In this document: positions 36,949 through 59,259 of the stretch, piece after piece
How positions within the stretch are numbered: the stretch's first letter is position 1
Layout of the letters: each line of letters opens with the position of its first letter
NCBI GenBank assembly: GCA_964583685.1
Contig: CAZOVJ010000002.1
Span: 213,862-277,861 of the forward strand
Length of the DNA stretch: 64,000 nucleotides
Origin: an uncultured Gammaproteobacteria bacterium
GTDB taxonomy: Bacteria; Patescibacteriota; Microgenomatia; UBA8517
Direction: 5' to 3'
The notes under the pieces: model-generated
What the model was told of the DNA's origin: nothing
The model's database searches: none
What the model saw: the letters and a program-made list of their open reading frames with translations, nothing else
Made by a program: the position numbers and the translations under genes

Positions 36949-38028
36949 ATGTTTAGGAAAGCTACCCGAGAACTGATTAAAAAAGGACAGGGACAGGGTT
37001 TTCTGACCCAGGAGGAAATATTGGAGATCTTTTTTGATGCCGAGAAAAGAATTGATGAACTTGACCTTTTATACGAAAAGCTTTTAGGTGAGGGAATAGA
37101 TGTTTTCGAATCGGTTACCCCGGAAGAGGTGGAGGAGAGCGAACAAGTACAAAAGACTTTTGAGAAGGAAATTGTCATACTTTCTCGGTTTGAGAAATCG
37201 GAATCTATTGACCCAGTGCGCCAATATTTGAAAGAAATAGGTCAATATCCTCTTTTGACTGCTGAAGAGGAAATAGAGCTTGCCAAGCGAGTTGAAAAAA
37301 GAGACAAACGGGCTAAGAGTAAATTAACAGAATCGAATTTAAGACTGGTTGTTTCAATTGCCAAAAAATACATTGGTAGGGGTCTTTCTTTTCTTGATCT
37401 TATTCAAGAGGGAAACCAGGGATTAATTCGAGCTGTAGAAAAATATGACTGGAGAAGAGGCTATAAATTTTCAACCTACGCTACCTGGTGGATACGCCAG
37501 GCGATTACTCGAGCAATAGCTGACCAGGCAAGGACAATAAGAATTCCGGTCCATATGGTAGAGACAATCAACAAGCTTTATAAGACCAGTCAGCGACTTA
37601 TGCAGGACTTAGGCCGCGAGCCCACACCAGAGGAAATAGGTAAAGTATTGGAGATAACCGGTGACCGGGTGCGGGAGATTTTCAGGTTTTCTCAAGAGAT
37701 AACCTCTCTTGAGGCCCCGGTGGGTGAGGATAGAGAAAGTCTTTTGGGAGATTTTATTCCAGATGACAGTCGGCCCACTCCGGTTGAGAGAGCATCAGAG
37801 CAGCTTTTAGAAGATAATCTCAAAGAGGTCTTGGAAACTCTTTCTGACCGTGAAGCAAGAGTTTTAAAACTGAGATTTGGTCTAGAAGGAGGCGATTCCA
37901 TGACCTTAGAGCAGGTGGGTAAGGTTTTTGGAGTTACTCGCGAACGCATTCGTCAGATTGAGGCCAAGGCTTTACGCAGATTAAAACACCCAAGTAGAAG
38001 GAAAAAACTCCAAGACTATCTAGATTGA
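36949..38028 (+). CDS. rpoD: RNA polymerase sigma-70 factor RpoD/SigA
   Basis: Region 2.4 [27 protein letters not shown], region 4 [31 protein letters not shown]; dnaG-rpoD operon. Confidence 0.9.
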
Positions 38029-38114: not shown

Positions 38115-38186
38115 TCCCCGGTAGCTCAATGGTAGAGCGCTCGCCTGTTAAGCGAAGGGTTGCTGGTTCGAGTCCAGCCCGGGGAG
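38115..38186 (+). tRNA. tRNA-Asn (anticodon GUU)
   Basis: TCCCCGGTAGCTCAATGGTAGAGCGCTCGCCTGTTAAGCGAAGGGTTGCTGGTTCGAGTCCAGCCCGGGGAG; anticodon loop CUGUUAA. Confidence 0.8.
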
Positions 38187-39785
38187 CATAAGTGTACGAT
38201 TCTGACATTTAACGAGGATATCAAAGGGTTTTTTGTAGGTAAAATCAATCTTTTTGTCCTTCAAGGTTAGGTTCTGAAATACAAAATTTAATAGCTCACT
38301 CTTTCGTTTATCACTTGCCTTGTTAAATAATTCTTTTGCTTTTTGAGACAGTTCTAAGTAGAGAATGGCTCTCTTAAACCATTTTTTGTCTAGGTTTTTG
38401 TATTTCTCGATTTCCTGTTCAAGTTCTTGCTTTTCCTGCTCATATTGGTCGTTTTTCTTGTCAAATTGGGCTTTTTTTATCTTTTGGTCTATATAGAGTT
38501 CTAGTAATCTATCTTGTTTAGGTTGTAGTTTTCCAAGGTGTCTGTTTAGGTTCTGTAATGATACATCCCTAATTTTTTGCTCCTCTTTAAGACCCTCTTT
38601 TAGCTCCTCTCGAAAAATTGGGCTAAGTTCTTCAGGCAAGCTGACCTTTTCTATTGCTTCTTCAAACACTCTCTGGAGATATTCGTGCTTAACCGAGCCC
38701 TGAGAACAACCGAAGCGATTTCTGGTGCAGTGATAGTAGATGTAGTGTAGATACAAAGGCTTTTTCATCTTTTTGATGGGTGTTTTACACTTAGGGCAAC
38801 ACCTTTTGTTCTTGTAGTGGAATTTGTTTTTACACTTGGGACAAATTAACTGAAACTTTTGCTCGGCAGTAATTCCTGCTCCACACTCACCGCATCGCAT
38901 TTCCTCAAGCTTGAAAGGGAAATCATAGATTCGTTGAAAACGGTGACCTTTGGCTTTTAGCCTTTCTTGGACTCTTTGCCAAAGCTCGTAATCAATAATT
39001 GGTTTGTGGCTGCCTTTATGTAATTTTCCTTTCCACCTAAACCAACAGTAATAGAAGGGATTTGTTAGTATATTATGCCAAGCTCCTTTACCGACCTTGC
39101 CCCCTGGCTTTCTTTTAGTAGCCCTACTCCTAAAACCATTTTTGTAAGCCCATTCCACAATCCCGTCAATAGAAAGTCTACCCACGTCATAGAGCTCAAA
39201 TGCCTTTTGGATTATCGGGGCCTTCGAGAAATCAACCTCTCTTTTATCTGATTCTTTGCCTGTTAGGGCAAAATACTCTTTCCTGGTTAAGTAACCAAGT
39301 GGGGGGACACTTGGAAAAAAACCTTGCTTAACCCTTTCCGCTTGCCCTTTTTTAGTTTCCTCACTGAGGTTGTCTATTTGCCATTTGGCCATAAGAGCTT
39401 GTAGGCCAAACATAGCGTGGCCTTGAGAATTGTTTTCAAACCTACCGGTGACACAGACTAAATCCAATTCTTTAACTCTCCATACATCGCATATTTGTCC
39501 TAAATCGTGCCAGTTTCTTGTTAGCCTGTCTGGCTTATGAGACAAAAGGCCGTACTGGCCAGTTGGGACTTGTCCTAGTATGCCCATCACTTCATTAAAC
39601 AATGGCCTACCTGAGTCTTTAGCTGATTTCTTTTCAGAAAACCACTTGATAATTTTCAATCCTTCTTTTTTAGCAAAATCTTCAATTTGATGTTTTTGGG
39701 CAGCAAGACTTAATTCTTGCTTGTCCTCGGTATCGGTTGACTTTCTGATATAAGCAAGATATTTTTTGTTGTTCATATTTGTCAT
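38148..39785 (-). CDS. Large serine recombinase (integrase)
   Basis: N-term YIRKSTDTEDKQELSLAAQ (resolvase catalytic Ser), recombinase domain, Cys-rich zinc-ribbon region CGECG...CPKC...CPKC; last 13 codons and stop lie inside tRNA-Asn. Confidence 0.8.
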   Translation of the reverse strand: MTNMNNKKYLAYIRKSTDTEDKQELSLAAQKHQIEDFAKKEGLKIIKWFSEKKSAKDSGRPLFNEVMGILGQVPTGQYGLLSHKPDRLTRNWHDLGQICDVWRVKELDLVCVTGRFENNSQGHAMFGLQALMAKWQIDNLSEETKKGQAERVKQGFFPSVPPLGYLTRKEYFALTGKESDKREVDFSKAPIIQKAFELYDVGRLSIDGIVEWAYKNGFRSRATKRKPGGKVGKGAWHNILTNPFYYCWFRWKGKLHKGSHKPIIDYELWQRVQERLKAKGHRFQRIYDFPFKLEEMRCGECGAGITAEQKFQLICPKCKNKFHYKNKRCCPKCKTPIKKMKKPLYLHYIYYHCTRNRFGCSQGSVKHEYLQRVFEEAIEKVSLPEELSPIFREELKEGLKEEQKIRDVSLQNLNRHLGKLQPKQDRLLELYIDQKIKKAQFDKKNDQYEQEKQELEQEIEKYKNLDKKWFKRAILYLELSQKAKELFNKASDKRKSELLNFVFQNLTLKDKKIDFTYKKPFDILVKCQNRTLMLPGLDSNQQPFA

Positions 39786-40568: not shown

Positions 40569-40780
40569 TTTAATCTCCTTTTTGGCCTTCTGAGATGCTC
40601 CTGAACGCTCTTTAGCAGCTTCAAGGTAGATGTTTATTGTTTTATCTCAAATGGCTCTTTTATCAGCTTATAATTTTTCTATCAGACTTTATTAGATTTT
40701 GGGACTGACAGTCTCAGCTAGGTTTATGAATGTGCAAAATAGCCTGATTTATGATATATTTTGAGCGTAACAGCCTGGCC

Positions 40781-41185
40781 TCATACGTCAAGTAAGGGTT
40801 CATTTGCCCCCGAAAGTTCCTTCTTAACTTTTTTAATCACTGTGTGCAGTTTTTCAATTATTTTGCTTGTTGGTAAATTCCCTATTTCATCCCAAATCCG
40901 GATGACTAATTCTTGGCTTTCGTTATTAAGTAATCTCAAGAGGTTGTCTGTATTTTTCATAAGTTGAATCTTCCGCCTCCATTTTCTGGCTTCTGATTTG
41001 GGAATATACATTTTCTTCAACTTTCTCTCTAATCTTTCGTCATAATCTCGGTAATACAGATAATAGGCTTTATGCCCTTTACCTCTGGTACAACGGCAAT
41101 TTGATTTTCCGCATTTAACTTTTTCAAGCCTGATTATTCCTAGCTCTTTCGGTTTATACTCTCTAAATGCTAAATCGTAGGCCAT
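40781..41185 (-). CDS. Small Cys-containing basic protein (CGKSNCRC), unknown
   Basis: 134-aa ORF in island. Confidence 0.35.
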   Translation of the reverse strand: MAYDLAFREYKPKELGIIRLEKVKCGKSNCRCTRGKGHKAYYLYYRDYDERLERKLKKMYIPKSEARKWRRKIQLMKNTDNLLRLLNNESQELVIRIWDEIGNLPTSKIIEKLHTVIKKVKKELSGANEPLLDV

Positions 41186-41189
41186 ACTA

Positions 41190-41444
41190 CTAACTTTCAG
41201 AAAATACCCTCGCTTTTAAGTTTTTGATGCTATTGACAAAAGATTTGACCTCAACCTTTGCTTCTCCCAACCAGTAGCAATTAACCTTTTCCTCGCATCG
41301 CCCTTTGTTGTTAAACACAAACCAGAAAAAGTCTTTTTCGGGCTCAAGTCTCACCAGTTTTTCCGACAGAGACAAGAAACTGGCAAGATATAAATCTTTA
41401 GTTCTGTATTCGTTCTGTTTTGGCATTTTTGGTTTCCTTTTCAA
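41190..41444 (-). CDS. Hypothetical small protein
   Basis: 84-aa ORF, tight spacing with neighbours. Confidence 0.3.
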   Translation of the reverse strand: MKRKPKMPKQNEYRTKDLYLASFLSLSEKLVRLEPEKDFFWFVFNNKGRCEEKVNCYWLGEAKVEVKSFVNSIKNLKARVFSES

Positions 41445-41668
41445 TCTTGTATAAAGTCACTAAAAAACCTCTGATATTCGCCGAAATCCCCCTGACTTCG
41501 TTGTCAGTAAGATTTCTCTGATACAGAGGTTCAAAGTATTGCTTGATTCGCTGCTGGTTTTTGGTAAGTTTGATGTCCATTTTCTCTGGGTTTTAATCTT
41601 TAATCCCAGATTAAGGCATTAAACTTCTTAATGTAATGGAGGTTTAATAGAAAGCTAAGTTTCCGCTT

Positions 41669-42349
41669 TTAAGAGGCTTGGAGTCTTTTTTCGTACTGCT
41701 TTACTGCCTTCCTGACCGTTTCTTTATACTTTTCAGGGTCAATGCCGCCTCTTTCTTTGTCTTCTGTGGCGATTTGCAGGTGAGTTTTCTCTTGTTTCTT
41801 TTTCCAATACCATTTCCTGTCCCTTTTTATATTGCTGATTGTATCGGGCGGTGCGTCTCCGTATGAGAGATAAACCCTATCAAAAGGTCTGATTTTCCTG
41901 ATAGTCTTAACCTGGGTTTTGAACTCCCTAAAAGCAGCTTCTAACTCTTTCTTGGTGGTGTCTGCTGTTATATAAATAGCAAATCTTGTAGGTGTACCCA
42001 CATCCATATCATTATCAACAGGACGCCAGTAGGCGGTTTCGTAGATTTTGTCATCAATATATCCGCTAATGATAGCCATATAGATAGCCCTGTCAAAGTT
42101 GGCTGTGAGCCTAAAGTGATTTCTTATTGGAGCAACATCTTTCCAGAAGCTATCGTATTGACCTTTTTTAACCATCCTGCTTGCCCATTCAAACTCCTGC
42201 TTTGGCTTAATAAGTCTAGTAATCTGCCACTTTTGCCTTAATCTGGTTACCTCTTTCAGAAAATCTTTTCTATCCACCAAGAAAGCAATATCGCAGTATT
42301 TCTTTTTATTCTTAATCTTTATCCTTACAGGTTCATATTTCATCTTCAT
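41669..42349 (-). CDS. Hypothetical protein (226 aa)
   Basis: ORF with upstream AG-rich RBS; no motifs recognised. Confidence 0.4.
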   Translation of the reverse strand: MKMKYEPVRIKIKNKKKYCDIAFLVDRKDFLKEVTRLRQKWQITRLIKPKQEFEWASRMVKKGQYDSFWKDVAPIRNHFRLTANFDRAIYMAIISGYIDDKIYETAYWRPVDNDMDVGTPTRFAIYITADTTKKELEAAFREFKTQVKTIRKIRPFDRVYLSYGDAPPDTISNIKRDRKWYWKKKQEKTHLQIATEDKERGGIDPEKYKETVRKAVKQYEKRLQAS

Positions 42350-42471
42350 CTAACTGGTATTTTATTGGATTAGAAGGATTTATTCAAAAATGGAGGTGTT
42401 CAAGGGAAAGTATCCGACAAAACAAAGCTAAGGAGCAGTCTTACTTTTTGAGCCAAAAATAGACAAGTTGC

Positions 42472-42903
42472 CTATTTGTAGTCTTCCACAATCATCTCGT
42501 AATTACCCAAAGAGTTAGAGTCGATATAGTATTCTCCCGAGCCATAAAAAATCGATTCATCCTTTACTGAGCCAGTTGTGTTCATAATCAGGTCTGACAT
42601 AATCTCACTATCTGGTTTTTGCAAAAAAGCTTGGCATAAATCGCCAGTACAGTTGTATTTGATTTTGAATCTATCCCCAGTAATTGTGAATGGTTCAGAT
42701 TTTTTAGCCCCATTGCCCTTGAAGGTAAAAACTGGTTGGTATTCTTTGGTGGCTTCTTTACTTTTTTGTGAGACTTCGGTTTCAGTCGTTGGACTGGTAT
42801 TTGATTGTTTTTCTCCACCACTGCCTGCCAATAAGCCAATGACTATAAAAACAGCCAATATGATACCTGCTATTTTTAGAACTTTTTTCACTTTTCTTCT
42901 CAC
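42472..42903 (-). CDS. Membrane-anchored secreted small protein
   Basis: N-terminal TM IAGIILAVFIVIGLLAG then Thr/Ser-rich linker. Confidence 0.4.
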   Translation of the reverse strand: MRRKVKKVLKIAGIILAVFIVIGLLAGSGGEKQSNTSPTTETEVSQKSKEATKEYQPVFTFKGNGAKKSEPFTITGDRFKIKYNCTGDLCQAFLQKPDSEIMSDLIMNTTGSVKDESIFYGSGEYYIDSNSLGNYEMIVEDYK

Positions 42904-42988
42904 CTCCTTTCGTTTTGGTTTGTTTGGTGAAAATATAACAGATTTACCGTCAAAAGTCTATGTTTACTGCGTTGTCGTTTTCTGAGGA

Positions 42989-43225
42989 TTGGTAAACAAT
43001 AGATTCACAATGCTATCCAAAAAAGCCTTCGCGGAGAAAGTTGGAAAAAATATAAAACGATTGAGAGAAAAAAGGGGGCTATCACAGGAGGAATTAGCTC
43101 ACAAAGCTGGACTTTACCGAACTTACATGGGTCACTTAGAAAACGCCAGATATTCCCCCAGTGCTTATATTTTGTATAAACTAGCTAAGATTTTGAAAAT
43201 AAAGATTTCGGAGTTTTTTTCTTAA
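42989..43225 (+). CDS. XRE-family HTH transcriptional regulator
   Basis: NIKRLREKRGLSQEELAHKAGLYRTYMGHLENARYSPSAYILYKLAKIL: classic HTH_XRE. Confidence 0.6.
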   Translation: MVNNRFTMLSKKAFAEKVGKNIKRLREKRGLSQEELAHKAGLYRTYMGHLENARYSPSAYILYKLAKILKIKISEFFS

Positions 43226-43236
43226 CGAAGTCAATT

Positions 43237-43701
43237 TTAGGATGCTTGAGTTGTTTTTTGAATCATTTCTAAATTCTTTAGTAATTGTTTGAGGATGGAT
43301 TTTTCAAAGAACTCAAAAGCTGGTTTATCTTTTGTCGTAAGCAAGTATCTTGCGGCTTTACTAGAAACTCTTAGGTGATGATATTTTGCCCTTATAGATG
43401 GAAATCTTTTAGCAATCAGGGTTTCCCTAAAGGCGTGCATGCTTTTATCTATGTCTAATGAGGCCATAGTTGACCGGTGGCGATTATAACAGTCATCAGT
43501 ATGCAATATTTCTGGGATACGGGTGAATGCAGCTTCAACGAAATGAAGAGCAGCATAAAAAGCACAAGTAATAGACCAATCTATAAAATCTGTCTTGGAA
43601 AGTTGTTTTGAGAGTTTCTTATTGTGCTCCGCTTGAGCATTATGCGTAGATAAACTTGACATTTTGGTAATCAAATGATTTTGCTGGGTGCAGATAGTCA
43701 T
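43237..43701 (-). CDS. Hypothetical protein (possible HEPN-like helical domain)
   Basis: 154 aa; ...WSITCAFYAALHFVEA...RAKYHH...; assignment weak. Confidence 0.35.
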   Translation of the reverse strand: MTICTQQNHLITKMSSLSTHNAQAEHNKKLSKQLSKTDFIDWSITCAFYAALHFVEAAFTRIPEILHTDDCYNRHRSTMASLDIDKSMHAFRETLIAKRFPSIRAKYHHLRVSSKAARYLLTTKDKPAFEFFEKSILKQLLKNLEMIQKTTQAS

Positions 43702-44323
43702 TAAATTCAGTTGACTCCTCTCTTTTTTTAACTGATAAATTTTCTTGTATTGCTCTGGTGAATATCAGTCTGTCTTCCTGGGGATTTATTAGGTTATTAC
43801 TTTCAGGATAATATGGAATATATTCAAAACTGATTAGTTTTTCTGAGAATGAGTCTTTAACAGGAAATTCTGCTTCATTAAAAATTTTGTCCATCAAATT
43901 GTAGTTATAGTGCTCAACATCTAATATGACCTTGACGGTTGTTAATTCTTCATTATGACTAATATAAATTTCTCTTATTTGTTCAAAATTTTTCAACCTG
44001 CGTGCTATTTTTAATTCTAATTGCTCTTCCGGTGTTGTTGGGTAATCTGACATAAGAGTAAAATCTTGTAAAGGCTGGTTAAAAGCTAAATAGCTTTGTG
44101 GTGGTGAGGCTGTGAAGTAAATAACTTGATTCATTTGTTGTTCACTTTGTGTCCCTAAGGAGATAAGGGCGGATTCTTCACAGGAGGCATTTATTGACTT
44201 TACTTCTATCGATGCCCCAGGAGATGCGTTTTCTTCATCAATAAACTTCCTTTGTAGTGAGGCAAGTAAGTAAGTATCATTTAATTTAGAGGTAGCTTCA
44301 AAACTGCTATTTATTGTGTTCAT
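43640..44323 (-). CDS. Hypothetical protein (227 aa)
   Basis: Overlaps downstream gene by 62 nt; AT-rich. Confidence 0.4.
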   Translation of the reverse strand: MNTINSSFEATSKLNDTYLLASLQRKFIDEENASPGASIEVKSINASCEESALISLGTQSEQQMNQVIYFTASPPQSYLAFNQPLQDFTLMSDYPTTPEEQLELKIARRLKNFEQIREIYISHNEELTTVKVILDVEHYNYNLMDKIFNEAEFPVKDSFSEKLISFEYIPYYPESNNLINPQEDRLIFTRAIQENLSVKKREESTEFNDYLHPAKSFDYQNVKFIYA

Positions 44324-44328
44324 TTTAA

Positions 44329-45030
44329 CTATAGTCCGAGACTGGCGAGAGTACTTTTTACCGATAATTCAAAGGCGTTACTAAAAAATGCCATCGCTTT
44401 TGGAAAATCAATTTTGTATTTAATTGTTTTTAATGTATTGATGTCTGATATTACTAAAAACAATCCTTTTTCTTTATTTCCTTCTTTTGAAATTAGCCTT
44501 ATCCAGTTATTTGTTTTGAAATCTCCAATTTTTTCAATAAATAATCTATGTATCTGTAGTTCGGTTGAGGCGTCTTTCGGATTACTAAGATAATTTTTCT
44601 TTAGGAGTTCTATTCCGTTGATAGATTGGCTGACTTTGTATTTTGTAACTAATCCTAGTCTATTGCTGGTCATTGAAAATCTAGTAAAGGTAATTTTGGC
44701 TAGTCTTTGGACAACCTTAAAGAAATCTTCTTTTGTTTTCTCAAGCGGCTTTTTCTCATCTGTTTCTTTATAGCTTAAATCAAGCCTATTGGCAGCGATA
44801 TTACAAGTTAGGTTTTTGTCTTTGCTAATTAAAATTATTCTTGGTATTTCTAAAGGTGCATCATCTGGTATTGGAAGGGTAGTTGGTGTTCCATTGAGTT
44901 TTGGAGATAGTCCTTTTTGTATTAAACTAGCTACACTTAACCTGTTTGATAAATCTATATTCCCGAGGAAAAAAGCAGCCTGAATGGATTGTGTAGAGAA
45001 TGGTATTTTCATAAAATCTAAATTAGACAA
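44329..45030 (-). CDS. Hypothetical protein (233 aa)
   Basis: First gene of three-gene minus-strand operon. Confidence 0.4.
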   Translation of the reverse strand: MSNLDFMKIPFSTQSIQAAFFLGNIDLSNRLSVASLIQKGLSPKLNGTPTTLPIPDDAPLEIPRIILISKDKNLTCNIAANRLDLSYKETDEKKPLEKTKEDFFKVVQRLAKITFTRFSMTSNRLGLVTKYKVSQSINGIELLKKNYLSNPKDASTELQIHRLFIEKIGDFKTNNWIRLISKEGNKEKGLFLVISDINTLKTIKYKIDFPKAMAFFSNAFELSVKSTLASLGL

Positions 45031-45189
45031 ATATATTATAACAGAAGGTAAAATTAATTTCTTTTTACACCATTAAACTAGTCCGAACTTCGTCTACGAT
45101 GGGGAGCCGAACTTTTTTGGCCTCAGATTTTACTACCCTCAGCAGGACGTTAAAACCCATGCTAGACTTGTTCAGACCTTTATAATGTT

Positions 45190-45776: not shown

Positions 45777-46436
45777 TTATAACAATTCAGAAGGGCGATA
45801 TTTATTCATTCCTGGGTTTGGCCATATTTCCCCAATGAATACCCGTTCACTTGAAACACTATAAAACATTACTGCCGAAAATGGATAGTTTTTAGAATTG
45901 AAACGCTTGGAAATTATTTCCCAATCCACAAAACTGACATCCTCAGGAATTATTAGCAACTTTGTGTTTGTTTTTGTGTACCGCCGAGGTATTTCCTTGT
46001 TAAGGTATTCTAAAAGAGTTTCTGTTATGTCTCCCTTTTTATGTTTTCTAAAGCGTTTTAATTGAAACGCAATACCTTTGGAAGTTTTCCTGTCCATATA
46101 TTTTATTTTTCCTGGGCTTATTACAACATCTATTGGAGTATTAGAGTCGGTATATCTTCTCAAAATCTCTCTAATTAACAACAGATTCGCCTTTCCTTTA
46201 TCTGGTATGTCTCTCGCATATTTATCTTTTAGCTTAAATCCTATTAGGGTATCGGTTTTCCACAATTTACGGTAGAAACCACTTAATAGTAAACTTATTA
46301 TTAATTCGTAGTTTTGGGAATCAGACTTTATGTTAACTTTTTTTAATAATGCCTTTAAAGTTCGTCTCTTAATAAAAAATGTCTCCACAAGACCTATTAT
46401 ATTAGATGTTGTGAAGATAAAAGGTTCTGACTTCAT
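45777..46436 (-). CDS. Hypothetical protein (219 aa)
   Basis: Convergent with previous gene; start abuts conserved 132-nt intergenic block. Confidence 0.4.
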   Translation of the reverse strand: MKSEPFIFTTSNIIGLVETFFIKRRTLKALLKKVNIKSDSQNYELIISLLLSGFYRKLWKTDTLIGFKLKDKYARDIPDKGKANLLLIREILRRYTDSNTPIDVVISPGKIKYMDRKTSKGIAFQLKRFRKHKKGDITETLLEYLNKEIPRRYTKTNTKLLIIPEDVSFVDWEIISKRFNSKNYPFSAVMFYSVSSERVFIGEIWPNPGMNKYRPSELL

Positions 46437-46616
46437 CCACGATAAGATTTCGTGCTTTATGTAGAAAGAAAATTACGCTGATAATCTGGATGAAGAATTA
46501 GAAACGGGCTTGGTACTTCTGTGTAATGCCTGATGAAATAGTTTCTGTATTTATATATATTAGGGAGCTAGCTTCAGAAAACCTATTTAGCGGGCTTTAT
46601 TTGGTAGAATAGAAGT

Positions 46617-47330
46617 ATGAGAGTTGGGTTGGTGATTGCTAAAGATGAGAAAGATTTATCTGAACTGAGAAAGTTCGTTCTTGAAACAAAAGAGGTAGAT
46701 TTGTTTCTTTTCCCCGAGGGATATTTAGATGCAGCCCAGCTTGATGAAGCATCGGAAATCGTGGCAAGGTCAAGTAAGTGGCTTGTAACTAGCTATTCTG
46801 ATGAAAGAAAAAAGAGAAAAATTGAGGTGGGAGTTGTATTTAATAGGAGAGGTAAAATAGTTGGCAAGCACGCTAAGACGACTTTAACCCGAGATGAGAT
46901 AAAAAAGGGTTACGTCTCGGGCAAAAGTATTGAAATTATCAAAACAGAATTTGGGAAAATAGGAATCTGTGTTTGTTACGAGATGCATTTTCCTGAAATA
47001 GCTCGGGAATACAAACTCCAAGGTGCAAGAGCGATTTTCAACCCCGTCGGGACAGGAATGTATAACGAGGAACAATATAGGCTTTGGGCTTCGTTGGGTA
47101 AAACCAGAGCTTATGAAAATGGAGTTTACACCTTTGGCTGCAGCCACCTTAGCGATGCGATTCCAATAGCCTACGCTTATGATAAAGATGGAATTGAGCT
47201 ACTAAAAGCAAGGGCTGTAAATAAGCTCTTTATACTTAATGTTCCTGTTGAGGAGATGACGAGGAAAGATGATAGGTGTAGTTTGATAACCAAAAGAACT
47301 CCCAAGCTTTATAAAAACCTTTCTAGGTAA
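46617..47330 (+). CDS. Carbon-nitrogen hydrolase (nitrilase superfamily) protein
   Basis: Catalytic triad context LFLFPEGYL (Glu), K, GICVCYEMHFPE (Cys). Confidence 0.6.
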   Translation: MRVGLVIAKDEKDLSELRKFVLETKEVDLFLFPEGYLDAAQLDEASEIVARSSKWLVTSYSDERKKRKIEVGVVFNRRGKIVGKHAKTTLTRDEIKKGYVSGKSIEIIKTEFGKIGICVCYEMHFPEIAREYKLQGARAIFNPVGTGMYNEEQYRLWASLGKTRAYENGVYTFGCSHLSDAIPIAYAYDKDGIELLKARAVNKLFILNVPVEEMTRKDDRCSLITKRTPKLYKNLSR

Positions 47331-47437
47331 CTAAACTAGTTCGAACTTCGTCCACGATAGAGTAACTTCAAGCTCAATTTGATGGGCTTTCTGATTTTTA
47401 ATTTTCGCTAGCGATGATGTTTTGGTAGAATTAACAT

Positions 47438-48109
47438 ATGAGTACTACAATAGATTGTCTTAGAACCAGGAGGAGTATCAGGGTTTATAAACCAGACCCA
47501 ATCCCCAAAGAGATTTTAAAGAAAATCTTCGAGGCGGCAGAACATGCACCTTCTTCTAAAAATACCAGACCTTGGGAATACTATGTTTTAACCGGGAAAG
47601 AAAAAGACCATATTTGCGATATAGTTGTTGAAGAATATCCCAAGAGAAAAGGCCCTTTCAGGAAGCGAGAAGAGTATGCACCCGCTAAATCCGTTAGCGA
47701 TGATAGAAATATTGATGATTTTCGGACTGCCAGAATAATGACGAATATCGGCAGTACAGTCTTTATTCGTCAGGCTCCAGCTCTGGTTTTAGTATTCAAT
47801 AAGGCTCCATACACTGCCGGAGAGCAAGATGTCATCGATGAAGCAGGAAAAGAGGCGCTTTTGGCCTATTGCGTTGAAATTCAAGGCGTGGCGGCTTTTA
47901 TTTATAGCCTTTTATTGGCCGCTCACGAACTTGGCTTGGGTGGTTGCTGGATTGCCGATATCAATTTCTGTCGGGACAAAATCAAAAAATACATTGGCAC
48001 AGACAACGATTTGGTTGCAGGCGTGGTTTTGGGCTATCCTGAAACTAAGGTTCCCCCTAAGAAAATTTCTTTGGATGAGCGAAAATTAGCTTCCTGGAAG
48101 AAGAAATAG
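47438..48109 (+). CDS. Nitroreductase-family protein
   Basis: RRSIRVYKPDPIPKEILKKIFEAAEHAPSSKNTRPWEY: nitroreductase signature. Confidence 0.7.
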   Translation: MSTTIDCLRTRRSIRVYKPDPIPKEILKKIFEAAEHAPSSKNTRPWEYYVLTGKEKDHICDIVVEEYPKRKGPFRKREEYAPAKSVSDDRNIDDFRTARIMTNIGSTVFIRQAPALVLVFNKAPYTAGEQDVIDEAGKEALLAYCVEIQGVAAFIYSLLLAAHELGLGGCWIADINFCRDKIKKYIGTDNDLVAGVVLGYPETKVPPKKISLDERKLASWKKK

Positions 48110-48193
48110 TTTCTGACCTTGCCCATCAGGTGGAGCTAGCTTCAGAAGCCCAGTTTCCTGGGCTTTTTTGGTTTGTGGTAGAATATTGCCAGC

Positions 48194-49291
48194 ATGCTTT
48201 CAGATATTTCTCCTCTTATTAGCAAGGTAAGCGAGGGGCAGAACCTAACAGCAGCGGAGACAGAAAGGGCTCTTGATACTGTTATTGAAGAAGACAAAGA
48301 GGGATGGTTTGCTTGGTCACTTCTTCTTGCACTCCATACCAAAGGGGAAACAGGAGATGAGTTCCTAGGATTTTGCAAGAGCTATGTAAAACGCCTTCCT
48401 AAACTTAACCCAAAAATTGACATTGATAACACCACTGACACTTCTGGGACCGGAGGAGATAAGTTAAAGACCTTCAATATTAGCACGACGGCCTCTGTGG
48501 TGCTTGCTGGAGCAGGTGTCACAGTAGCCAAACAAGCGTTTTTTGCTGTCACGGGATTCTCTGGGAGTGCTGAGATATTCGGGGCATTTGGAGTGGATGT
48601 CTTAAAAATAAGACTTCAACAAGTGGAAAAGACTCTGGAGACGATTGGGATTTGTCCATATCTTAAAGAAGTTTTAGTTGAGAAAACTGGTCTTGAGAAT
48701 CTGATGGTCACAAAAAAAGTCTCGGATATGGGGCTAAAGCTAGTTTCTCCTCTCCATATTGTTGCCAATGTAGTCGCACCAATTAAAATGAAAAGGAGAG
48801 TTTACGGTTGCACTTGGAGAAAATATTTGCCTGTTTTAGCTGAGCTTTTTCAAAAGCTGGGATACACAAAGGGAATGGTCGTTCATGGCGTGGACGGAAT
48901 CGATGAGATGTCAAATATTGGCAAGACAGAGATTGTAGAGTATACAGCAAAAAGGACAAAGGCCTACAAACTTAGCCCAGCTGACTTAGGAATTAGAAAA
49001 GCAAAATTTGAGGATATTAAAGCCATTAGCAAAGAGCGAAATGTGATTGACTTCTTACGAATCCTTTACGGGAAAGAGAAAAGTCCCAGAAGAGATATTG
49101 TTCTTGCCAACACCGCTGCTTCTTTATATGTTATGGGTAAGGTTAAAAACTTGAGTGAGGGGGTGGCGATGGCAGGAGAAGTTATAGACGAGGGGTTAGC
49201 CTTTAAGAAATTAGAACAACTAGTAAAAGCTTTAGGAGATGAAAAGCAGCTTGAGAATTGGAAGAAGAAAGCTGGTTTAGCTTCAAACTAG
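48194..49291 (+). CDS. Glycosyl transferase family 3 / anthranilate phosphoribosyltransferase-like (TrpD homolog)
   Basis: DTSGTGGDKLKTFNISTTASVVLAGAG: TrpD GTGGD...FNIST motif. Confidence 0.65.
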   Translation: MLSDISPLISKVSEGQNLTAAETERALDTVIEEDKEGWFAWSLLLALHTKGETGDEFLGFCKSYVKRLPKLNPKIDIDNTTDTSGTGGDKLKTFNISTTASVVLAGAGVTVAKQAFFAVTGFSGSAEIFGAFGVDVLKIRLQQVEKTLETIGICPYLKEVLVEKTGLENLMVTKKVSDMGLKLVSPLHIVANVVAPIKMKRRVYGCTWRKYLPVLAELFQKLGYTKGMVVHGVDGIDEMSNIGKTEIVEYTAKRTKAYKLSPADLGIRKAKFEDIKAISKERNVIDFLRILYGKEKSPRRDIVLANTAASLYVMGKVKNLSEGVAMAGEVIDEGLAFKKLEQLVKALGDEKQLENWKKKAGLASN

Positions 49292-49610
49292 TCCGAACTT
49301 CCTCAGCACCATTCACTTCGTTCAGGTACGGGGCAGGCGTCCACGATAAGACCTCGTGCTTTATGCAGGAAGAAAACTGTGTTGATATTCTGGGTGAAGA
49401 ATTAAATATGGGCATGGTACTTCTGTATAGTGCTTAATGAAATAGTTTCTGTATTTATATATATTAGGGAGCCCTGAATAAAAAGAGCCTATGTATGACT
49501 CTTTTTTATTTACTTTGCCTGTTTCCCTCCCTGTATCCAAAAATCTCAACCGATCCAAAGTCATCCGGGTTTCAAGAGGAAGATATTCTTACAAGAAATA
49601 ATCTCCAGGC

Positions 49611-49638
49611 TTGACGTCTTTAATATTTTTGTTATAAT
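49611..49638 (+). promoter_or_regulatory. Consensus sigma-70 promoter TTGACG-N16-TATAAT
   Basis: TTGACG 49611-49616, TATAAT 49633-49638; about 350 nt upstream of the next ATG (49991). Confidence 0.5.
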
Positions 49639-49990
49639 ACCTCTAATTTAATAATCAGGGAGGGATGGACAATTGCTGCCCATCCTTTTTGATTATTAAA
49701 GACCAATTTTTTCAAGTAAAGTGGAAGGCTTTTAACGGCAAAGCGCCAAATAAGGCCTGACACAATGCTTTTAAAATATTCAGTTTTAGTCCCGAATCGT
49801 CGGGAGCACCTTAACAAGTAAATAATGGATAAGAAATAGCGCCGTTGTCCCTCTGTGATAAAAACCCTGAGTTCTATTAGTGAAGGAGTTATCAGCCAGT
49901 CACCTGTGTCCTGAGAGAAATCAAAGGACTCCTGAGGTGACCCAGTTGTGTGTCAATTTGACACCGACAAAAAAGATAAGGAGAGAGAAA

Positions 49991-50335
49991 ATGAACTGGG
50001 TTATTAACATCATCTTTTGCCTGATCACAGCGGTAAACTTCACTTTATATGCCTTGGCATTCCGTAAGGTTGGTCCAGCCGAAATATCATTTAACTATGT
50101 TTTTTCGGTTTTGACTAATCCTTTCTTTGTCTTGGCCCTGGTGATGGCACTGCTCGGCTCAATCCTCCGGATGGCAGTATTTACTGCCTTTGGGGTAATG
50201 CGCTCAGCTGTCGTTTCTGAGATGACAGTGGTCTTTACGCTGGTGTTAGCTTTCTTGGTTTTTCAGGAAAAGCTTGACCTACGCTTCTTCGTAGGAACAG
50301 GCTTCATCCTGATCGGTGTCTACCTCCTCAGCTAA
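49991..50335 (+). CDS. Small 4-TM DMT/EamA-like (ArnE/F-like) membrane protein
   Basis: ATG 49991 with RBS AAGGAGAGAG; ORF-track start 49880 is a likely over-extension; four hydrophobic helices. Confidence 0.5.
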   Translation: MNWVINIIFCLITAVNFTLYALAFRKVGPAEISFNYVFSVLTNPFFVLALVMALLGSILRMAVFTAFGVMRSAVVSEMTVVFTLVLAFLVFQEKLDLRFFVGTGFILIGVYLLS

Positions 50336-50385
50336 ACCAGGTTTTCTCCGCAGAGTCAAACGCAAATCTACTGAAAGGAGAGAGT

Positions 50386-51549
50386 GTGATGAAAATCCTG
50401 TTGGTATCCAACTTCATTCCTGGTGGGAGGCCTGTCAGCGAATATTGTTACTACTTGGTTGAGGCACTCAGAAAAATTGACGAGATAGCAGAAATCACGG
50501 TGTTAGCGGATATTGTTCAAGGAAAGCCTCCAATTACGAGAGATGGAAAAGTTACTATCCGGAGGTGCTGGGAGTTTAATTCGCACCTCACGCCGTGGAG
50601 GGTGGCAAAAACCATCAGGTCGCTTAACCCTGAAATCTGCTGGTTCAACATCACTCTTGGTAGCTTTGGTATGACGACAGCCAACTTTGCAGGTCTCTTG
50701 TCGCCACTAATTGTAGAACGGCTGCTCGGCATACCGTGTTTGATCACCCTCCATAACATTGTTGATCTAACTGATACTCGGGAAACGAAGTTTCGTGGAG
50801 GAAAACTAACAATTCTTGGAGCAAGGATTGCAACTAGGATCTTGTGTAAGGCAAGCCTGGTTTCCGTTCTTCTTCCAGAATACGAACCAATCTTAAGGAG
50901 AAGATATGGTGCCATGGATGTCAAGATCGTTCCTCTCGGGACCCTGGGTCAACCCATAAACTGGCCGTATAATTCTGAGACAAAGCGCATCCTCAGTCTC
51001 GGTATATTTGGGACCCACAAGAGGCTCGAAACCACACTTGAAGCGATGGAAAGTCTGTACGCAGGAGATCCTACTATAAAACTGACCATAGTGGGAGGAT
51101 CCAATGTCCATAACCCAGACTATCTCGCAAAACTCCAGCAAAAATTCAGGTCACTTCCGAATGTCGATTTTGTAGGATACGTTCCAGAGGATTGTGTCGC
51201 TGATGTTTTTAGGGAATGCAGGGCTGTGATTTTACCCTACCAAACAATTGGAGGCGAATCGGCTACCCTCATCCAGGCAGGGATGTACGCAAGACCAATC
51301 CTTGTATCCGACCTACCTTTGTTTCGTCGCAAGGCAGAGGATGGGTATATTCTCAACTTCTTCGACGTCAATGATCCTGAAAGTATCAAGGAGGCAATCC
51401 TGGCCCTACTTCGGCAAGACCAAGAAACACTAGCCAGGCAAGGTAAACAAAACTTTCGGGCTGCGACATCCTATCCGATGAGTGAAGTTGCTCAAATCTA
51501 CGTAGACTTGATTGAGGAAATCCTTAACAAGAAAGAAGGAGGTGTGTGA
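50386..51549 (+). CDS. Glycosyltransferase family 4 (GT-B) protein
   Basis: C-terminal GT4 pattern ...AVILPYQTIGGESATLIQAGMYARPILVSDLPLF... Confidence 0.65.
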   Translation: MMKILLVSNFIPGGRPVSEYCYYLVEALRKIDEIAEITVLADIVQGKPPITRDGKVTIRRCWEFNSHLTPWRVAKTIRSLNPEICWFNITLGSFGMTTANFAGLLSPLIVERLLGIPCLITLHNIVDLTDTRETKFRGGKLTILGARIATRILCKASLVSVLLPEYEPILRRRYGAMDVKIVPLGTLGQPINWPYNSETKRILSLGIFGTHKRLETTLEAMESLYAGDPTIKLTIVGGSNVHNPDYLAKLQQKFRSLPNVDFVGYVPEDCVADVFRECRAVILPYQTIGGESATLIQAGMYARPILVSDLPLFRRKAEDGYILNFFDVNDPESIKEAILALLRQDQETLARQGKQNFRAATSYPMSEVAQIYVDLIEEILNKKEGGV

Positions 51550-53318
51550 TGGACAGGCGGCTTATAATAGCCATTTCCGTAATTACCCTCTTGAACCTCC
51601 CCCTAATGGCTAGCCTCTTTTTCGACAACAACTGGGACAGTGAAACCCACCTCTTCTTTGCGGATCATTACCGTAGAGATTGGTTTGATCCCTGGGAGGA
51701 AAAGTGGTATGGCGGCTTTTGGGTTTATAGCTATCCGCCGTTAACCCATCAGCTAATCGCTATCTTTTCCCTTCCCTTCGGGTTAGAGGTGGGATACAAA
51801 TTGGTTCAAGGCCTTTCTCTCTCAGCTTTCCCTTTAGCTGTGTGGTTACTTGCCAAGGAGGTGGTAGGTAAGAAGTATGCAGGATGGGCTGCCTTACTCA
51901 GTACGGGGGTGGCGGGCGTCTATGTCATTCTTTACACGTTCGGACAGCTTCCCGCCTTCTTGGCCCTGGTGTTTGTCTTGATAGCAGGAACTTTTCTCGC
52001 CCGTTATCTAAAATCGGGTGGGTTAATTCCGCTATTCGGGTGGTTCTTCTTTACAGGAACGACTGCTGCAACACACCATCACACTGCTTTTGTAATGCTG
52101 CCAATGCTGGCAAGTGTTTTAGCTCTTCAAAACTGGATTACCAAGCCATTCAGCTTTTCAAGATTCCTGTTTCGGCCAGCAATAGCTGCACTGCTGTTCG
52201 TCTTCGTGGTAGCAGTAGCCATCGCCCCATTCTGGTGGTGGTTCTCCACCCAAAGCCTACCCCAAGCCGAGATACCCCATCCCACTCGGGAAAATATCTT
52301 CAGAGTCTGCCGTGAGTCACGGATGTTCTTCTGGGATATGTATGGAGGCATCCTGGTTTTACTGCCTGTTGGATTCTGGGTTACAGTTCGTCGGCGAGAC
52401 CTATGGCCACTAGGAATCTTCATTGTTTTCTTGGGAATACTAGGGCTAGGGGGACTCACCATCGTACCAGAGGTGGTTTTCCAGAGATGGTGGAGGGTGT
52501 TCACCTATGAACGGTTTCCCTTGTGGGCTGCTGTTCTCAGCCTGATACCAATCAGTGTTTGGGTAGGAAACTTGGAAAGGCGCGGCATTTGGCGATACAC
52601 CACAATCTCTCTCTCATTACTTCTAGCAATAGGGACAATGAGGGCAATCTCATTCCCATTAGATAATGATGACCTCTTACCAAAACCGCTAAAGAGGTGG
52701 GAGGAGACAGAGATAGTCAAATTCCTAGAGGTTGATGGTCATTCCCAATGGAACTACGTCACTTTTGGACTAGGAGAATCGCAACTTGCTCGACTTTCCA
52801 GACTTACTTCTGCTCGAACCATAGATGGTTTCTTCCACCAGGCCCGCTGGAGAGTAGAACAGAGAGAATCTGGTGTTGGAACGATCGACAGCTCTCCTTG
52901 GGCGGGGGAGGAAAGCTATAGCCTTCTTTTCCCAATTCTCCAACGTCCCTGGGAGTGGAGTCTCAGGTGGGCTATAGTCGCTAATTCATGGGCAGAGGAG
53001 CACTTACGAAATTCCGGCTGGTCACTCCTTCGCCCTGCTGATTGGTCACTCCTTCACCCTATTGGCTCCGACGATTCATATAAACTAGGAGACCCGGCTT
53101 ACAGTCTAGTCACGGTCTGGGAAGCACCAAATGAAGTACCTATCCCGGAGGTTGAACCAGGCCAACAAGTAGGTCCGCCCTACTACCCACAAAGTAGTCC
53201 TGTCAAGCAATTCGTCAAACAATTCCTGCCTTACTTGTGGGGTTTGGTACCTCTGTTTCTTCTAGTCGGAGGACTTTGGGTAATGTACTGGGAAGTGTGG
53301 AATCAAAAAACTGAATAG
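51546..53318 (+). CDS. Polytopic membrane protein, putative GT-C-type glycosyltransferase
   Basis: 590 aa, more than 10 TM, aromatic-rich loops; start overlaps GT4 stop. Confidence 0.45.
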   Translation: MMDRRLIIAISVITLLNLPLMASLFFDNNWDSETHLFFADHYRRDWFDPWEEKWYGGFWVYSYPPLTHQLIAIFSLPFGLEVGYKLVQGLSLSAFPLAVWLLAKEVVGKKYAGWAALLSTGVAGVYVILYTFGQLPAFLALVFVLIAGTFLARYLKSGGLIPLFGWFFFTGTTAATHHHTAFVMLPMLASVLALQNWITKPFSFSRFLFRPAIAALLFVFVVAVAIAPFWWWFSTQSLPQAEIPHPTRENIFRVCRESRMFFWDMYGGILVLLPVGFWVTVRRRDLWPLGIFIVFLGILGLGGLTIVPEVVFQRWWRVFTYERFPLWAAVLSLIPISVWVGNLERRGIWRYTTISLSLLLAIGTMRAISFPLDNDDLLPKPLKRWEETEIVKFLEVDGHSQWNYVTFGLGESQLARLSRLTSARTIDGFFHQARWRVEQRESGVGTIDSSPWAGEESYSLLFPILQRPWEWSLRWAIVANSWAEEHLRNSGWSLLRPADWSLLHPIGSDDSYKLGDPAYSLVTVWEAPNEVPIPEVEPGQQVGPPYYPQSSPVKQFVKQFLPYLWGLVPLFLLVGGLWVMYWEVWNQKTE

Positions 53319-53404
53319 TGAGAAATAAAGATCACGATTCGCCGTAGGCGAAATTTGCTGTTCTCACCAGCAAGTACCGAAAGGTTAAAGTGATCTTGTT
53401 CCGT

Positions 53405-53436
53405 CAAAAAACCCACCCTAAAGGTGGGTTTTTTGT
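53405..53436. terminator. Bidirectional rho-independent terminator
   Basis: AAAAA-CCCACC-ctaaa-GGTGGG-TTTTTTG. Confidence 0.6.
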
Positions 53437-53786
53437 TTCAGACTATTGATATTTTTTAGTGTCCTCAACAACCAGGATGTGGTAGGAGATAGTACGTTTA
53501 TTTTACAAGCCCGCCGCAAATGCAAGTCCTTGCACGCTTCAGAAAGCCCAACTGCTCCAATCCCACATCGGAATTGGTTGACATTTTGTATAAGCGAGAA
53601 ATCAGAGGTGACAAACCAAAACCAGGACACGAGCAGGATATTGCCAATCTAAGATTGATTACTCATGCTAGAGAAGTTGAAGCTAGGCTTGCAGAATAAG
53701 TCCTTTAGGGGGAGCCATCTTTCGCCAGGGCTTCAGAGTGGCAAGCCACGCATTTTTTGGCCTCAAATTTTATTACTCCAAATAAG

Positions 53787-54227
53787 ATGATAGAACCTGA
53801 TATAATTTTCTCAATGAAAATAGGTGTTGTTGGTAGCATGCAGTACACAGAAGAAATGATGGGATTCCGTGATGAGTTGGCTAAATTGGGCCATGATGCC
53901 TTTTTAACAAACTTGGCCACGCCTTTTGTTGGGAAAGGCAATGAGGAAAAAGAAAAAATAAAAATACACCAAAAGCAAAACATGGATGCCATACGAGAAT
54001 TTTGGAATTTAATGCAAGGTGCGGATGCGATTTTAGTTGTGAACCTGGATAAGCATGGAATCAAGAATTACATTGGTGGAAACACTCTCATGGAAATAGG
54101 ATTTGCTCATGTTCTTGATCAGAAGATATTCTTACTCAATCCCATACCAGACATTCCTTATTACAAAACTGAAATCGAAGCCGTAAAGCCTATTATTATC
54201 GACGGAGATTTAAGCAAAATTAAATAG
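53787..54227 (+). CDS. Nucleoside 2-deoxyribosyltransferase-like protein
   Basis: KIGVVGS...DAILVVN...GGNTLMEIGFAHV pattern; ORF-track start 53757 is TTG, so first ATG used. Confidence 0.45.
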   Translation: MIEPDIIFSMKIGVVGSMQYTEEMMGFRDELAKLGHDAFLTNLATPFVGKGNEEKEKIKIHQKQNMDAIREFWNLMQGADAILVVNLDKHGIKNYIGGNTLMEIGFAHVLDQKIFLLNPIPDIPYYKTEIEAVKPIIIDGDLSKIK

Positions 54228-54284
54228 AAAACTAGTCCGAACTTCCCACCAAATTAGGTTTTTTTGGTTTGGTAGAATAAAGAT

Positions 54285-54803
54285 GTGAAACTAGCAGAGT
54301 ATAGAAAGACCTTAACTGGGCCCTTGAAGCAAGCAACTTTATGCTTTTTGATTAGAGAAGGTGGAGTGTTGTTGGCAATGAAAAAGCGGGGCTTTGGGAA
54401 AGGAAGATGGAATGGGCTTGGTGGAAAACCTGAGCAAAATGAAACAATAAAGAAAGCTGCAATCAGGGAAACACAGGAAGAGATTGGTGTTACTCCCGTT
54501 TCCCTCCGTAAAGTGGCAAAATTAGATTTTTATACCCCCAACAATCCTGAGTGGAATCAACAAGTCATCGTGTTTTTGGTCGATAAATGGAAAGGAGAGC
54601 CAAAAGAATCCGAAGAAATGGCCCCTCAATGGTTTAAAATGGAAGATATCCCCTTTGATTCTATGTGGGCTTGCGATTCCCACTGGCTACCTAAAGTCTT
54701 AGAGGGGAAGACTCTTACGGCCGAGTTTATGTTTGACGAAAACGACGAGATTTTGGAAATGGCAATCCACGAGGGAGAGCAAAATCTTATTAACCAGACG
54801 TAG
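54285..54803 (+). CDS. NUDIX hydrolase
   Basis: Nudix box GGKPEQNETIKKAAIRETQEEIGV. Confidence 0.75.
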   Translation: MKLAEYRKTLTGPLKQATLCFLIREGGVLLAMKKRGFGKGRWNGLGGKPEQNETIKKAAIRETQEEIGVTPVSLRKVAKLDFYTPNNPEWNQQVIVFLVDKWKGEPKESEEMAPQWFKMEDIPFDSMWACDSHWLPKVLEGKTLTAEFMFDENDEILEMAIHEGEQNLINQT

Positions 54804-55186
54804 GGGAGCCAAGCTTGGCGAGGGCGTAAAAAGCAATTTTGTCAAGAAAATGCCCTGGGTGCTATAGTTAAAAGCATGAGAAAAGCAAGGAAACTTCATC
54901 CTAAATAACTCCGTCTGAATTGTATTCTCAAACGCCTTAGTAATCTTGGAAATACTAGTTCTAACAATCCCGCTGAGCGGGGCAGGTCTCAGGGCTGGGG
55001 AGCCAGTTTGTTTTAATAAAAACCCAAATTATAGGGTTCATATGAAAAAATGAAAAAGAAAAATTTATGTTGCTGGTATAATAAAAACTCGGCTATGAAA
55101 AGAGCCTGATGGAACTGTCGATGAGAATTTAAAATGAAAGAAAGACAGGAAGAGTCATCGGAAGGAATAGCGCAGCCTGGTGAAAA

Positions 55187-59124: not shown

Positions 59125-59259
59125 AGCAAATCAGTTAGCCCGGGGAGCTAATTTGTTTTTTTTGAGATTTAGTGTTACAATCTTTTTGTAAAAGATTTAC
59201 TTTTGGCAGTTATGCTTCAAAGAAATCTTCAAAATAAAGATAAAGGTGGTGAGAATTAA

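Follow-up and report, generated by a model that had tools for sequence, protein, structure and literature searches.

The question raised by this locus is how genes are transcribed and translated when a promoter motif ends only a few nucleotides in front of their start codons. The stretch of contig CAZOVJ010000002.1 that was analysed here, 64,000 nucleotides in length and as a whole called the window, contains four genes encoding a CN-hydrolase, a nitroreductase, a TrpD-like glycosyl transferase and a NUDIX hydrolase, each preceded by the same extended -10 motif, TGGTAGAAT. The original prediction for this DNA had placed the transcription start at about +7, which would make the mRNAs leaderless, and had suggested that leaderless initiation may be common in the genome. 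We concluded from the sequence that the four genes probably constitute separate transcription units, which would be read from extended -10 promoters independent of a -35 element and would give leaderless mRNAs.

The 9-mer TGGTAGAAT was present in exactly four copies in the window, all on the + strand, and no further exact copy was found on either strand. In dinucleotide-preserving shuffles 0.57 ± 0.74 copies were expected, and none of 100 shuffles reached four. The copies, numbered P1 to P4 along the window (Table 1), ended 6, 6, 9 and 6 nt before ATG 46617, ATG 47438, ATG 48194 and GTG 54285, and the gaps read agaagt, taacat, attgccagc and aaagat, respectively. Positions and gaps of the original prediction were thereby reproduced exactly. 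In front of the NUDIX gene an ATG at 54283 runs straight into TGA, and the start of this gene is the GTG at 54285. The more general motif TGnTAnAAT was found 29 times in the window. Eight of these motifs lay 5–10 nt before an open reading frame (ORF) of at least 100 amino acids (aa), five of them at exactly 6 nt, compared with 2, 2, 0, 0 and 0 in the next 6-nt bins. The combination TGnTAnAAT-N6-RTG occurred five times, against an expectation of 0.14 for the window. The same arrangement had been pointed out further upstream in the window, and there TGTTATAAT at 29228–29236 was indeed followed after 9 nt by ATG 29246, which opens an ORF of 219 aa.

The argument depends on the start codons being placed correctly. 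All four starts had an in-frame stop codon 2–5 codons upstream: for the CN-hydrolase the TAG of its own -10 hexamer, 4 codons before the ATG, for the nitroreductase a TAA 2 codons before the ATG (47432), and for the TrpD-like gene a TAG 5 codons before the ATG. In three genes this stop was the TAG of TAGAAT (46605, 48179 and 54273). Homologues of the TrpD-like protein have 362–366 aa, compared with 365 aa in the window, and the N-terminus of the NUDIX protein, MKLAEYRKTL, aligned with those of its homologues and was conserved from residue 1. The Pfam domains of the four proteins began at residues 7–15. Because upstream stops, homologue lengths, N-terminal alignment and Pfam boundaries agree, we regard the predicted start codons of the four genes as secure. 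Within the first 60 codons of the nitroreductase and TrpD-like genes no alternative ATG, GTG or TTG was found in frame. No Shine-Dalgarno (SD) site was present in the four gaps of 6–9 nt, which are too short to hold one. A gap of 6 or 9 nt puts the first three bases of the -10 hexamer in the frame of the gene, and TAGAAT (or TAAAAT) therefore doubles as a stop; an in-frame TAG or TAA at the -10 position would terminate any translation entering from upstream.

At the four sites the -35 region showed at most two of six matches to TTGACA at a spacing of 16–18 bp, and a two-hexamer promoter scan did not list the sites because this element is lacking. The window encodes the primary sigma factor RpoD (Table 1). 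Its region 3.0 motif VHMVETINK retains H and E, which we take to be the equivalents of H455/E458 in sigma-70 of E. coli, contacting the TG of the extended -10 element; region 4.2 was also retained. The 9-mer TGGTAGAAT was further found upstream of tRNA-Asn and rpoD in L006, a metagenome-assembled genome (MAG) of Levyibacteriota, and upstream of tRNA-Ile in L007 (L-numbered sequences, e.g. L084, L096 and L123, are loci or contigs of relatives or metagenomes used for comparison). The window also has TGTTATAAT at a distance of 11 nt upstream of tRNA-Ser. Since tRNA genes downstream allow no translational role, it is strongly predicted that the 9-mer acts as a promoter and not as a translational signal.

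Orthologues of two of the genes were compared upstream of their start codons. In L084, which contains the closest orthologue of the TrpD-like gene (80% aa identity), the arrangement was TGGTAAAAT-N6-ATG, and similarity to the window at the DNA level started only 25 nt before the TrpD-like ATG. A second orthologue (L083, 77%) had TACAAT-N7-ATG, and the NUDIX orthologues had TGTTAAAAT-N8-ATG (L124) and TGTCAAAAT-N8-ATG (L125). Judged from these alignments, the arrangement of -10 element and start codon is maintained among orthologues while the sequence drifts. In 49 species the distribution of transcription starts is centred 7 bp downstream of the -10 element (PMC12641261), and with a gap of 6 nt the predicted start is therefore the first base of the start codon. 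Transcription start at these sites and leaderless translation are thus strongly predicted; on the sequence level the proposed start at about +7 was in agreement with the start codons, the lack of SD sites, the position of the -10 element and the orthologues.

The following course of events would account for these observations. The housekeeping sigma factor encoded in the same window, with both TG-contacting residues in region 3.0, would recognise TGn and TAGAAT and melt the DNA. RNA polymerase would then begin about 7 nt past the hexamer, which after a 6-nt gap would be the A or G of the start codon; at the TrpD-like gene, with its 9-nt gap, the transcript would be leaderless or have a leader of at most 3 nt. 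The resulting mRNA would have neither a 5' untranslated region nor an SD site, and the ribosome with initiator tRNA would bind the 5'-terminal AUG or GUG directly, genes internal to operons being translated from GGAGG-type SD sites. The copies of the 9-mer would be identical since the promoter belongs to a shared cassette-junction module consisting of a 35-nt element, a terminator and TTTGGTAGAAT.

To place the signal in its lineage, the source of the DNA has to be considered. The best matches of RpoD were MAGs of Gottesmanbacteria, Levyibacteriota, Shapirobacteria and 'Patescibacteria group' with 57–66% identity, and it was 77% identical to a homologue on a short contig labelled Gammaproteobacteria. 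From these relatives the window, which has a GC content of about 40%, was assigned to a Microgenomates-type bacterium of the Candidate Phyla Radiation (CPR). Three MAG contigs whose RpoD is among the closest, with identities of 77%, 62% and 59% (L001, L004 and L009), have record titles reading 'uncultured Gammaproteobacteria', which are probably taxonomic mislabels. The same genome was found in sample 3300008517 of the Joint Genome Institute (JGI) and in SRR3095939.

Leaderless genes in bacteria are recognised computationally by a TA-like signal located about 10 bp upstream of the start (Zheng et al. 2011, PMC3160421), and GeneMarkS-2 defines its group C by this signal, a group that is common in Actinobacteria and Deinococcus-Thermus (PMC6028130). 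We followed the distance between the end of TAnnAT and the start codon in the window, in 13 related CPR loci (L002–L034) and in 13 Firmicutes control loci obtained with the same query. The distance peaked at 6–10 nt in 16 of 68 window genes and 54 of 205 CPR genes, whereas 15 of 262 Firmicutes genes fell in this range and the distribution was flat. The suggestion that leaderless initiation may be common in this genome was supported by this peak. With a permissive classifier (-10 element at 5–10 nt, leaderless-like) the numbers were 28/68 for the window, 94/205 for CPR and 28/262 for Firmicutes, and among the classifier-positive genes TG was present at -15/-14 in 13, 31 and 1 genes, respectively. 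SD-like sites showed the opposite distribution, with 13/68 (19%) in the window, 13/205 (about 6%) in CPR and 126/262 (48%) in Firmicutes. In a logo of 135 promoters of the lineage the frequencies of T and G at -15/-14 were 0.53 and 0.44, compared with 0.33 and 0.18 in the background, although TG was not a selection criterion; the modal gap was 6 nt, and no -35 information was detected (at most 0.07 bit). The -10 motif was commoner at operon-first genes than at internal ones (69/198 vs 22/101, p = 0.02), and SD sites were commoner at operon-internal genes (p = 0.006). By these counts, leaderless starts appear to be normal for about one third or more of the operon-first genes of this lineage. 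Roughly half of the CPR genes had neither an SD site nor a -10 signal, so that initiation in the CPR relatives may often follow a third mode that is unexplained.

The four promoters are embedded in repeated DNA. Intergenic regions at 45–55 kb of the window are repeat mosaics, and a 35-nt junction element with the consensus CTAAACTAGTYCGAACTTCGTCCACGATGGGGAGC begins where the preceding gene ends, at its stop codon or just past it. JGI metagenome contigs were scanned for exact words and then searched with nhmmer, and this revealed the element in over 20 further low-GC contigs, among them L092, L096, L101, L109 and L123. There it was usually followed within 10–230 nt by TGnTAnAAT-N6-10-ATG of the next gene, and some contigs had several elements on a single strand at intervals of about 1 kb (in L096 at 1385, 2474, 3431 and 4410). 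The 55 nt at 48132–48186 of the window, comprising GGAGC, the terminator hairpin and TGGTAGAAT, recurred before unrelated genes with 89–93% identity in L117/L121 and twice in L123, and the terminator/promoter module recurred in L096 as well. Among the flanks of P1–P4, three copies had GGGCTTT..TTTGGTAGAATA in common, which is part of this repeated junction module. The promoter is embedded in the module and therefore travels with the cassette junction. That the 9-mer was kept and its flanks diverged is, as far as the alignments indicate, the pattern expected of selection on a promoter.

Several observations weigh against leaderless transcription units at all four genes. Only P3 has a convincing terminator upstream; a moderate hairpin lies upstream of P2, and the hairpins before P1 and P4 folded no better than shuffled sequence, and therefore read-through transcripts may also cover these genes. 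At P3 the gap of 9 nt exceeds the 7-bp norm, so that either the start site would be unusual or the mRNA would have a leader of at most 3 nt. The 5'-GUG of the NUDIX mRNA would be a poor leaderless start in E. coli, yet such starts are used in Deinococcus (PMC4007540). When one mismatch was allowed the 9-mer was not enriched (16 observed vs 16 expected); the signal resides in the exact copies plus their positions. Judged from their flanks, the four copies are of common ancestry and thus amount to fewer than four independent observations. Finally, the gene calls were crude longest-ORF calls and the lineage-wide fractions are therefore approximate.

Some of these points would fit a different explanation, by which the 9-mer is a mere conserved piece of a repeated junction or mobile element without promoter function, and the genes are transcribed from promoters further upstream as longer RNAs, which are translated by SD-independent internal initiation at an A/U-rich, unstructured start. 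The copies do lie within a repeated module that was found in other genomes, the hairpins before P1 and P4 are weak, and many genes of the lineage have neither SD site nor -10 element, hence SD-independent internal initiation must exist. We nevertheless consider this explanation improbable, because the flanks of the module have diverged and the 9-mer was 100% conserved, and because other cassettes and core genes have different TGnTAnAAT variants at the same gap of 6–10 nt. The signal is moreover position-specific with an enrichment of TG, beyond mere A/T-richness, and the identical 9-mer precedes tRNA genes. The intergenic gaps (84–107 nt) and the strong terminator before P3 also disfavour translational coupling.

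If the promoters are real, translation could still begin at a downstream codon, giving short conventional leaders. The CN-hydrolase gene has TTG and GTG in frame at codons 4–5, and the NUDIX gene has TTG at codon 13. We judged this very unlikely: no SD site was found upstream of these alternative codons, the NUDIX conservation from residue 1 and the Pfam domains from residues 7–15 speak for the assigned starts, and the nitroreductase and TrpD-like genes offer no other in-frame start within 60 codons. A chance co-occurrence of an A/T-rich 9-mer with start codons, for which only the lack of enrichment at one mismatch could be cited, deserves practically no credence and was refuted by the shuffles (four exact copies vs 0.57 expected, 0/100 reaching four, all on the coding strand 6–9 nt from starts), the TGnTAnAAT bins, the excess of TGnTAnAAT-N6-RTG and the lineage-wide positional peak, which was absent in the Firmicutes controls. 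We therefore retained leaderless transcription from -35-independent extended -10 promoters as the probable explanation. The features discussed are collected in Table 1.

Table 1. Promoters, genes and repeated elements of the window, with positions counted from its first nucleotide.
Feature	Position	Strand	Remarks
P1, extended -10 TGGTAGAAT	46602..46610	+	ends 6 nt before ATG 46617; no -35 match 16-18 bp upstream
P2, extended -10 TGGTAGAAT	47423..47431	+	ends 6 nt before ATG 47438
P3, extended -10 TGGTAGAAT	48176..48184	+	ends 9 nt before ATG 48194; predicted leader 0-3 nt
P4, extended -10 TGGTAGAAT	54270..54278	+	ends 6 nt before GTG 54285
Fifth extended -10, TGATATAAT	53798..53806	+	7 nt before ATG 53814 (137-aa gene, 53814-54227); not in the original prediction
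CN-hydrolase (nitrilase superfamily), 237 aa	46617..47330	+	predicted leaderless; Pfam PF00795
Nitroreductase, 223 aa	47438..48109	+	predicted leaderless; Pfam PF00881 from residue 8
TrpD-like glycosyl transferase family 3, 365 aa	48194..49291	+	predicted leaderless; Pfam PF00591/PF02885
NUDIX hydrolase, 172 aa	54285..54803	+	GTG start; predicted leaderless; Pfam PF00293
Primary sigma factor RpoD	36949..38028	+	Pfam sigma-70 regions r1-r4
Intrinsic terminator hairpin AGAAGCCCAG-TTTC-CTGGGCTTTT with T-run	48144..48173	+	directly upstream of P3; -18.3 kcal/mol, z = -1.8
Junction element, full 35 nt, TTAAACTAGTCCGAACTTCGTCTACGATGGGGAGC	45073..45107	+	nhmmer E = 6e-13
Junction element, left part	47331..47358	+	directly after CN-hydrolase stop; nhmmer E = 9e-10
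Junction element, diverged (type 2), ATAGTTTCTGACCTTGCCCATCAGGTGGAGC	48107..48137	+	at nitroreductase stop; direct reading; same variant in L096 5253-5285
Junction element, left part	49284..49301	+	overlaps TrpD-like stop; remainder 49339-49351 and GGGAGC 49467-49472 displaced by inserts
Junction element, truncated	54229..54245	+	after 137-aa gene; then T-run and P4
Large serine recombinase	38148..39785	-	directly after tRNA-Asn, 3' end overlapping tRNA 3' half

The junction element raised the question whether the genes belong to a system of exchangeable units. Units bounded by the element occurred in more than one contig, with different neighbours. Two adjacent units of L092 were separately shared with L109 (77%) and with L123 (89%), and the similarity broke at the element, showing that the units are shuffled. 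Genes in cassette-type units encode NUDIX proteins, nitroreductases, an aminoglycoside adenylyltransferase, nucleases and methyltransferases, and the units sometimes have a terminator ahead of the promoter. The adenylyltransferase, specific for streptomycin (aminoglycoside), lies in a related array at L109 3360–4175 on the - strand (PF04439, E = 2e-60), and resistance-type genes therefore occur among CPR cassettes. We tentatively propose, as a possibility that is still doubtful, that the four promoters belong to a so far undescribed system of cassettes in Microgenomates-type CPR bacteria, in which single-gene units with their own -35-less, leaderless promoter at the 5' side and the 35-nt element at the 3' side accumulate downstream of tRNA-Asn and are exchanged by site-specific recombination. 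Such a system would in function be an integron analogue that lacks IntI and attC and may use a serine recombinase.

With integron gene cassettes these units have in common that mostly single accessory genes are accompanied by a conserved repeat travelling with the 3' end of the gene, and that the same cassette occurs in different orders in different genomes. They differ in that each cassette has a promoter of its own and does not rely on the common promoter Pc, and in that the 35-nt repeat has neither an attC hairpin partner nor the R''/R' cores (RYYYAAC, GTTRRRY). The array here is also adjacent to tRNA-Asn and to an element with a large serine recombinase. No Phage_integrase match of the kind that IntI would give was found among the 29 proteins scanned at 35–58 kb, genes at 0–35 kb being covered in part, the only recombinase being the large serine one, and no inverted-repeat (attC) partner was found downstream of the junction element, which ends with GGGGAGC. 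The classical integron was rejected for want of IntI and of an attC-type inverted repeat. The element was likewise rejected as an RNA hairpin or terminator, its self-complementary stem of only 3–5 bp being too weak. No copy of it was found in viral contigs. In Rfam searches of the whole window at the gathering threshold only tmRNA (transfer-messenger RNA) and tRNAs were detected, and an E-value scan of 44.9–55.3 kb gave nothing credible, with the junction element, a 133-nt repeat and a leader at 49640–49990 (see below) unmatched.

The tRNA-Asn gene is located at 38115–38187 and ends with GTCCAGCCCGGGGAGCA. The end of the element (GTCCA..GGGGAGC) resembles the tRNA 3' end, and its last 7–9 nt copy it. 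GGGGAGC was present on the + strand at 38182 and again at unit junctions at 45102, 53710, 54804, 54998 and 59143; of the 8 copies that the + strand of the window contains, 6 thus lie within 38–59 kb. A 12-nt match, agcccggggagc, was found at 59141–59152 directly before a gene for an RRM protein. After the NUDIX gene, 54803–54845 was 86% identical to the tRNA-Asn/recombinase junction of L113, and by this similarity it is a putative relic of such a junction. Taken together, the GGGGAGC copies, the 12-nt match and the L113-like junction look like scars of repeated site-specific insertion.

An integrative element at tRNA-Asn spans about 38115–45107 and contains, besides the serine recombinase, a conserved module of an MgsA_C protein, DUF6788, DUF5659, a 60-aa protein and a 226-aa protein. 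Recombinase homologues with 52–75% identity and the same gene module abut tRNA-Asn in other Microgenomates contigs, and homologous elements (among L128, L129, L130, L131 and L113 3245–3541) have defence cargo: restriction-modification, the cyclic-oligonucleotide-based antiphage signalling system CBASS, and TIR. The locus thus resembles known large serine recombinase elements that target tRNA genes, in the core module and defence cargo shared with them and in the overlap of the recombinase 3' end with the 3' half of tRNA-Asn in the window, L128, L130 and L131; such an element accounts only for 38188 to about 45107. A role of the junction element as attR of this element was not supported, because no copy was found within 10 kb of four homologous recombinase loci, three of which abut tRNA-Asn or a tRNA 3' half. 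Synteny downstream of rpoD was not conserved among the 13 CPR relatives and thus gave no boundaries for the island.

The predicted promoters can be compared with leaderless genes that are preceded by a TA-like signal in Actinobacteria and Deinococcus-Thermus and with GeneMarkS-2 group C (PMC3160421, PMC6028130 and PMC4007540). They are alike in having a Pribnow-type box 6–10 nt before operon-first starts, SD sites confined to operon-internal genes, a share of about 25–50% of operons, and both AUG and GUG starts. They differ in the host, which here is a Microgenomates-type CPR bacterium of low GC content (about 40%) and belongs to a group named neither in those surveys nor in any paper found, in the extended -10 promoters without detectable -35, and in the very low use of SD sites (6–19% of genes by crude calls). 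Extended -10 sigma-70 promoters of E. coli and Gram-positives share the TG one base before the -10 element, the dispensable -35 and the H/E pair of region 3.0. Minimal mycobacterial promoters, consisting of a -10 element and G at -14/-13, likewise do not need a -35 element (references 66 and 67 in PMC12641261). Elsewhere extended -10 promoters are a minority class, whereas here they are apparently the default architecture of the predicted leaderless promoters. No description of leaderless genes in CPR, Patescibacteria, Saccharibacteria or Microgenomates was found in the literature searched, the coverage of which was incomplete, and GeneMarkS-2 pipelines may silently model the signal. The leaderless phenomenon is known in other phyla; what is new is its host lineage and the class of promoter, which lacks a -35 element.

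Translation start in CPR/Patescibacteria has, to our knowledge, been little studied. Their ribosomes are reduced and some members lack the anti-SD sequence (PMC9297842). The arrangement described here offers a testable rule for annotating gene starts in these genomes, makes promoter strength predictable from a very short sequence and brings a deep-branching low-GC group into the debate on leaderless initiation as an ancestral mode. A promoter that sets the translation start would dispense with a host-specific SD/anti-SD match, which would suit mobile cassettes as found here; if true, cassettes that bring their own leaderless promoter would be expressed at any site of insertion. We regard the cassette-junction system as a more novel and more interesting lead than the leaderless promoters themselves.

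Further repeats and foreign-looking DNA were observed between the TrpD-like and NUDIX genes and around them. A direct repeat of 133 nt with 86% identity is located at 46436–46568 and 49340–49472. It opens with the middle of the junction element, TCCACGATAAGA (CACGA/TCGTG hairpin), and closes with GGGAGC. Both copies of this repeat coincide exactly with breaks in the Logan contig L082, and L109 has a similar continuation, CGATAAAATTTCGTGCTTT. The sole full consensus promoter of the region, TTGACG-16-TGTTATAAT, was found at 49611–49638. It is followed at 49640–53318 by a leader of about 350 nt (49640–49990) and an operon of EamA, glycosyltransferase 1 and a 590-aa membrane protein. This operon is unlike its neighbours, with a GC content of 0.47 and GGAGG SD sites, and may be foreign DNA or have a regulatory leader. 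Finally, L094 from another metagenome was 99.8% identical to 54069–54483 of the window, and further upstream it contained a diverged allele of the 137-aa gene (L094 1–1157 vs window 52912–54068). This divergence indicates a putative recombination breakpoint within the 137-aa gene and a region that is mosaic at the strain level.

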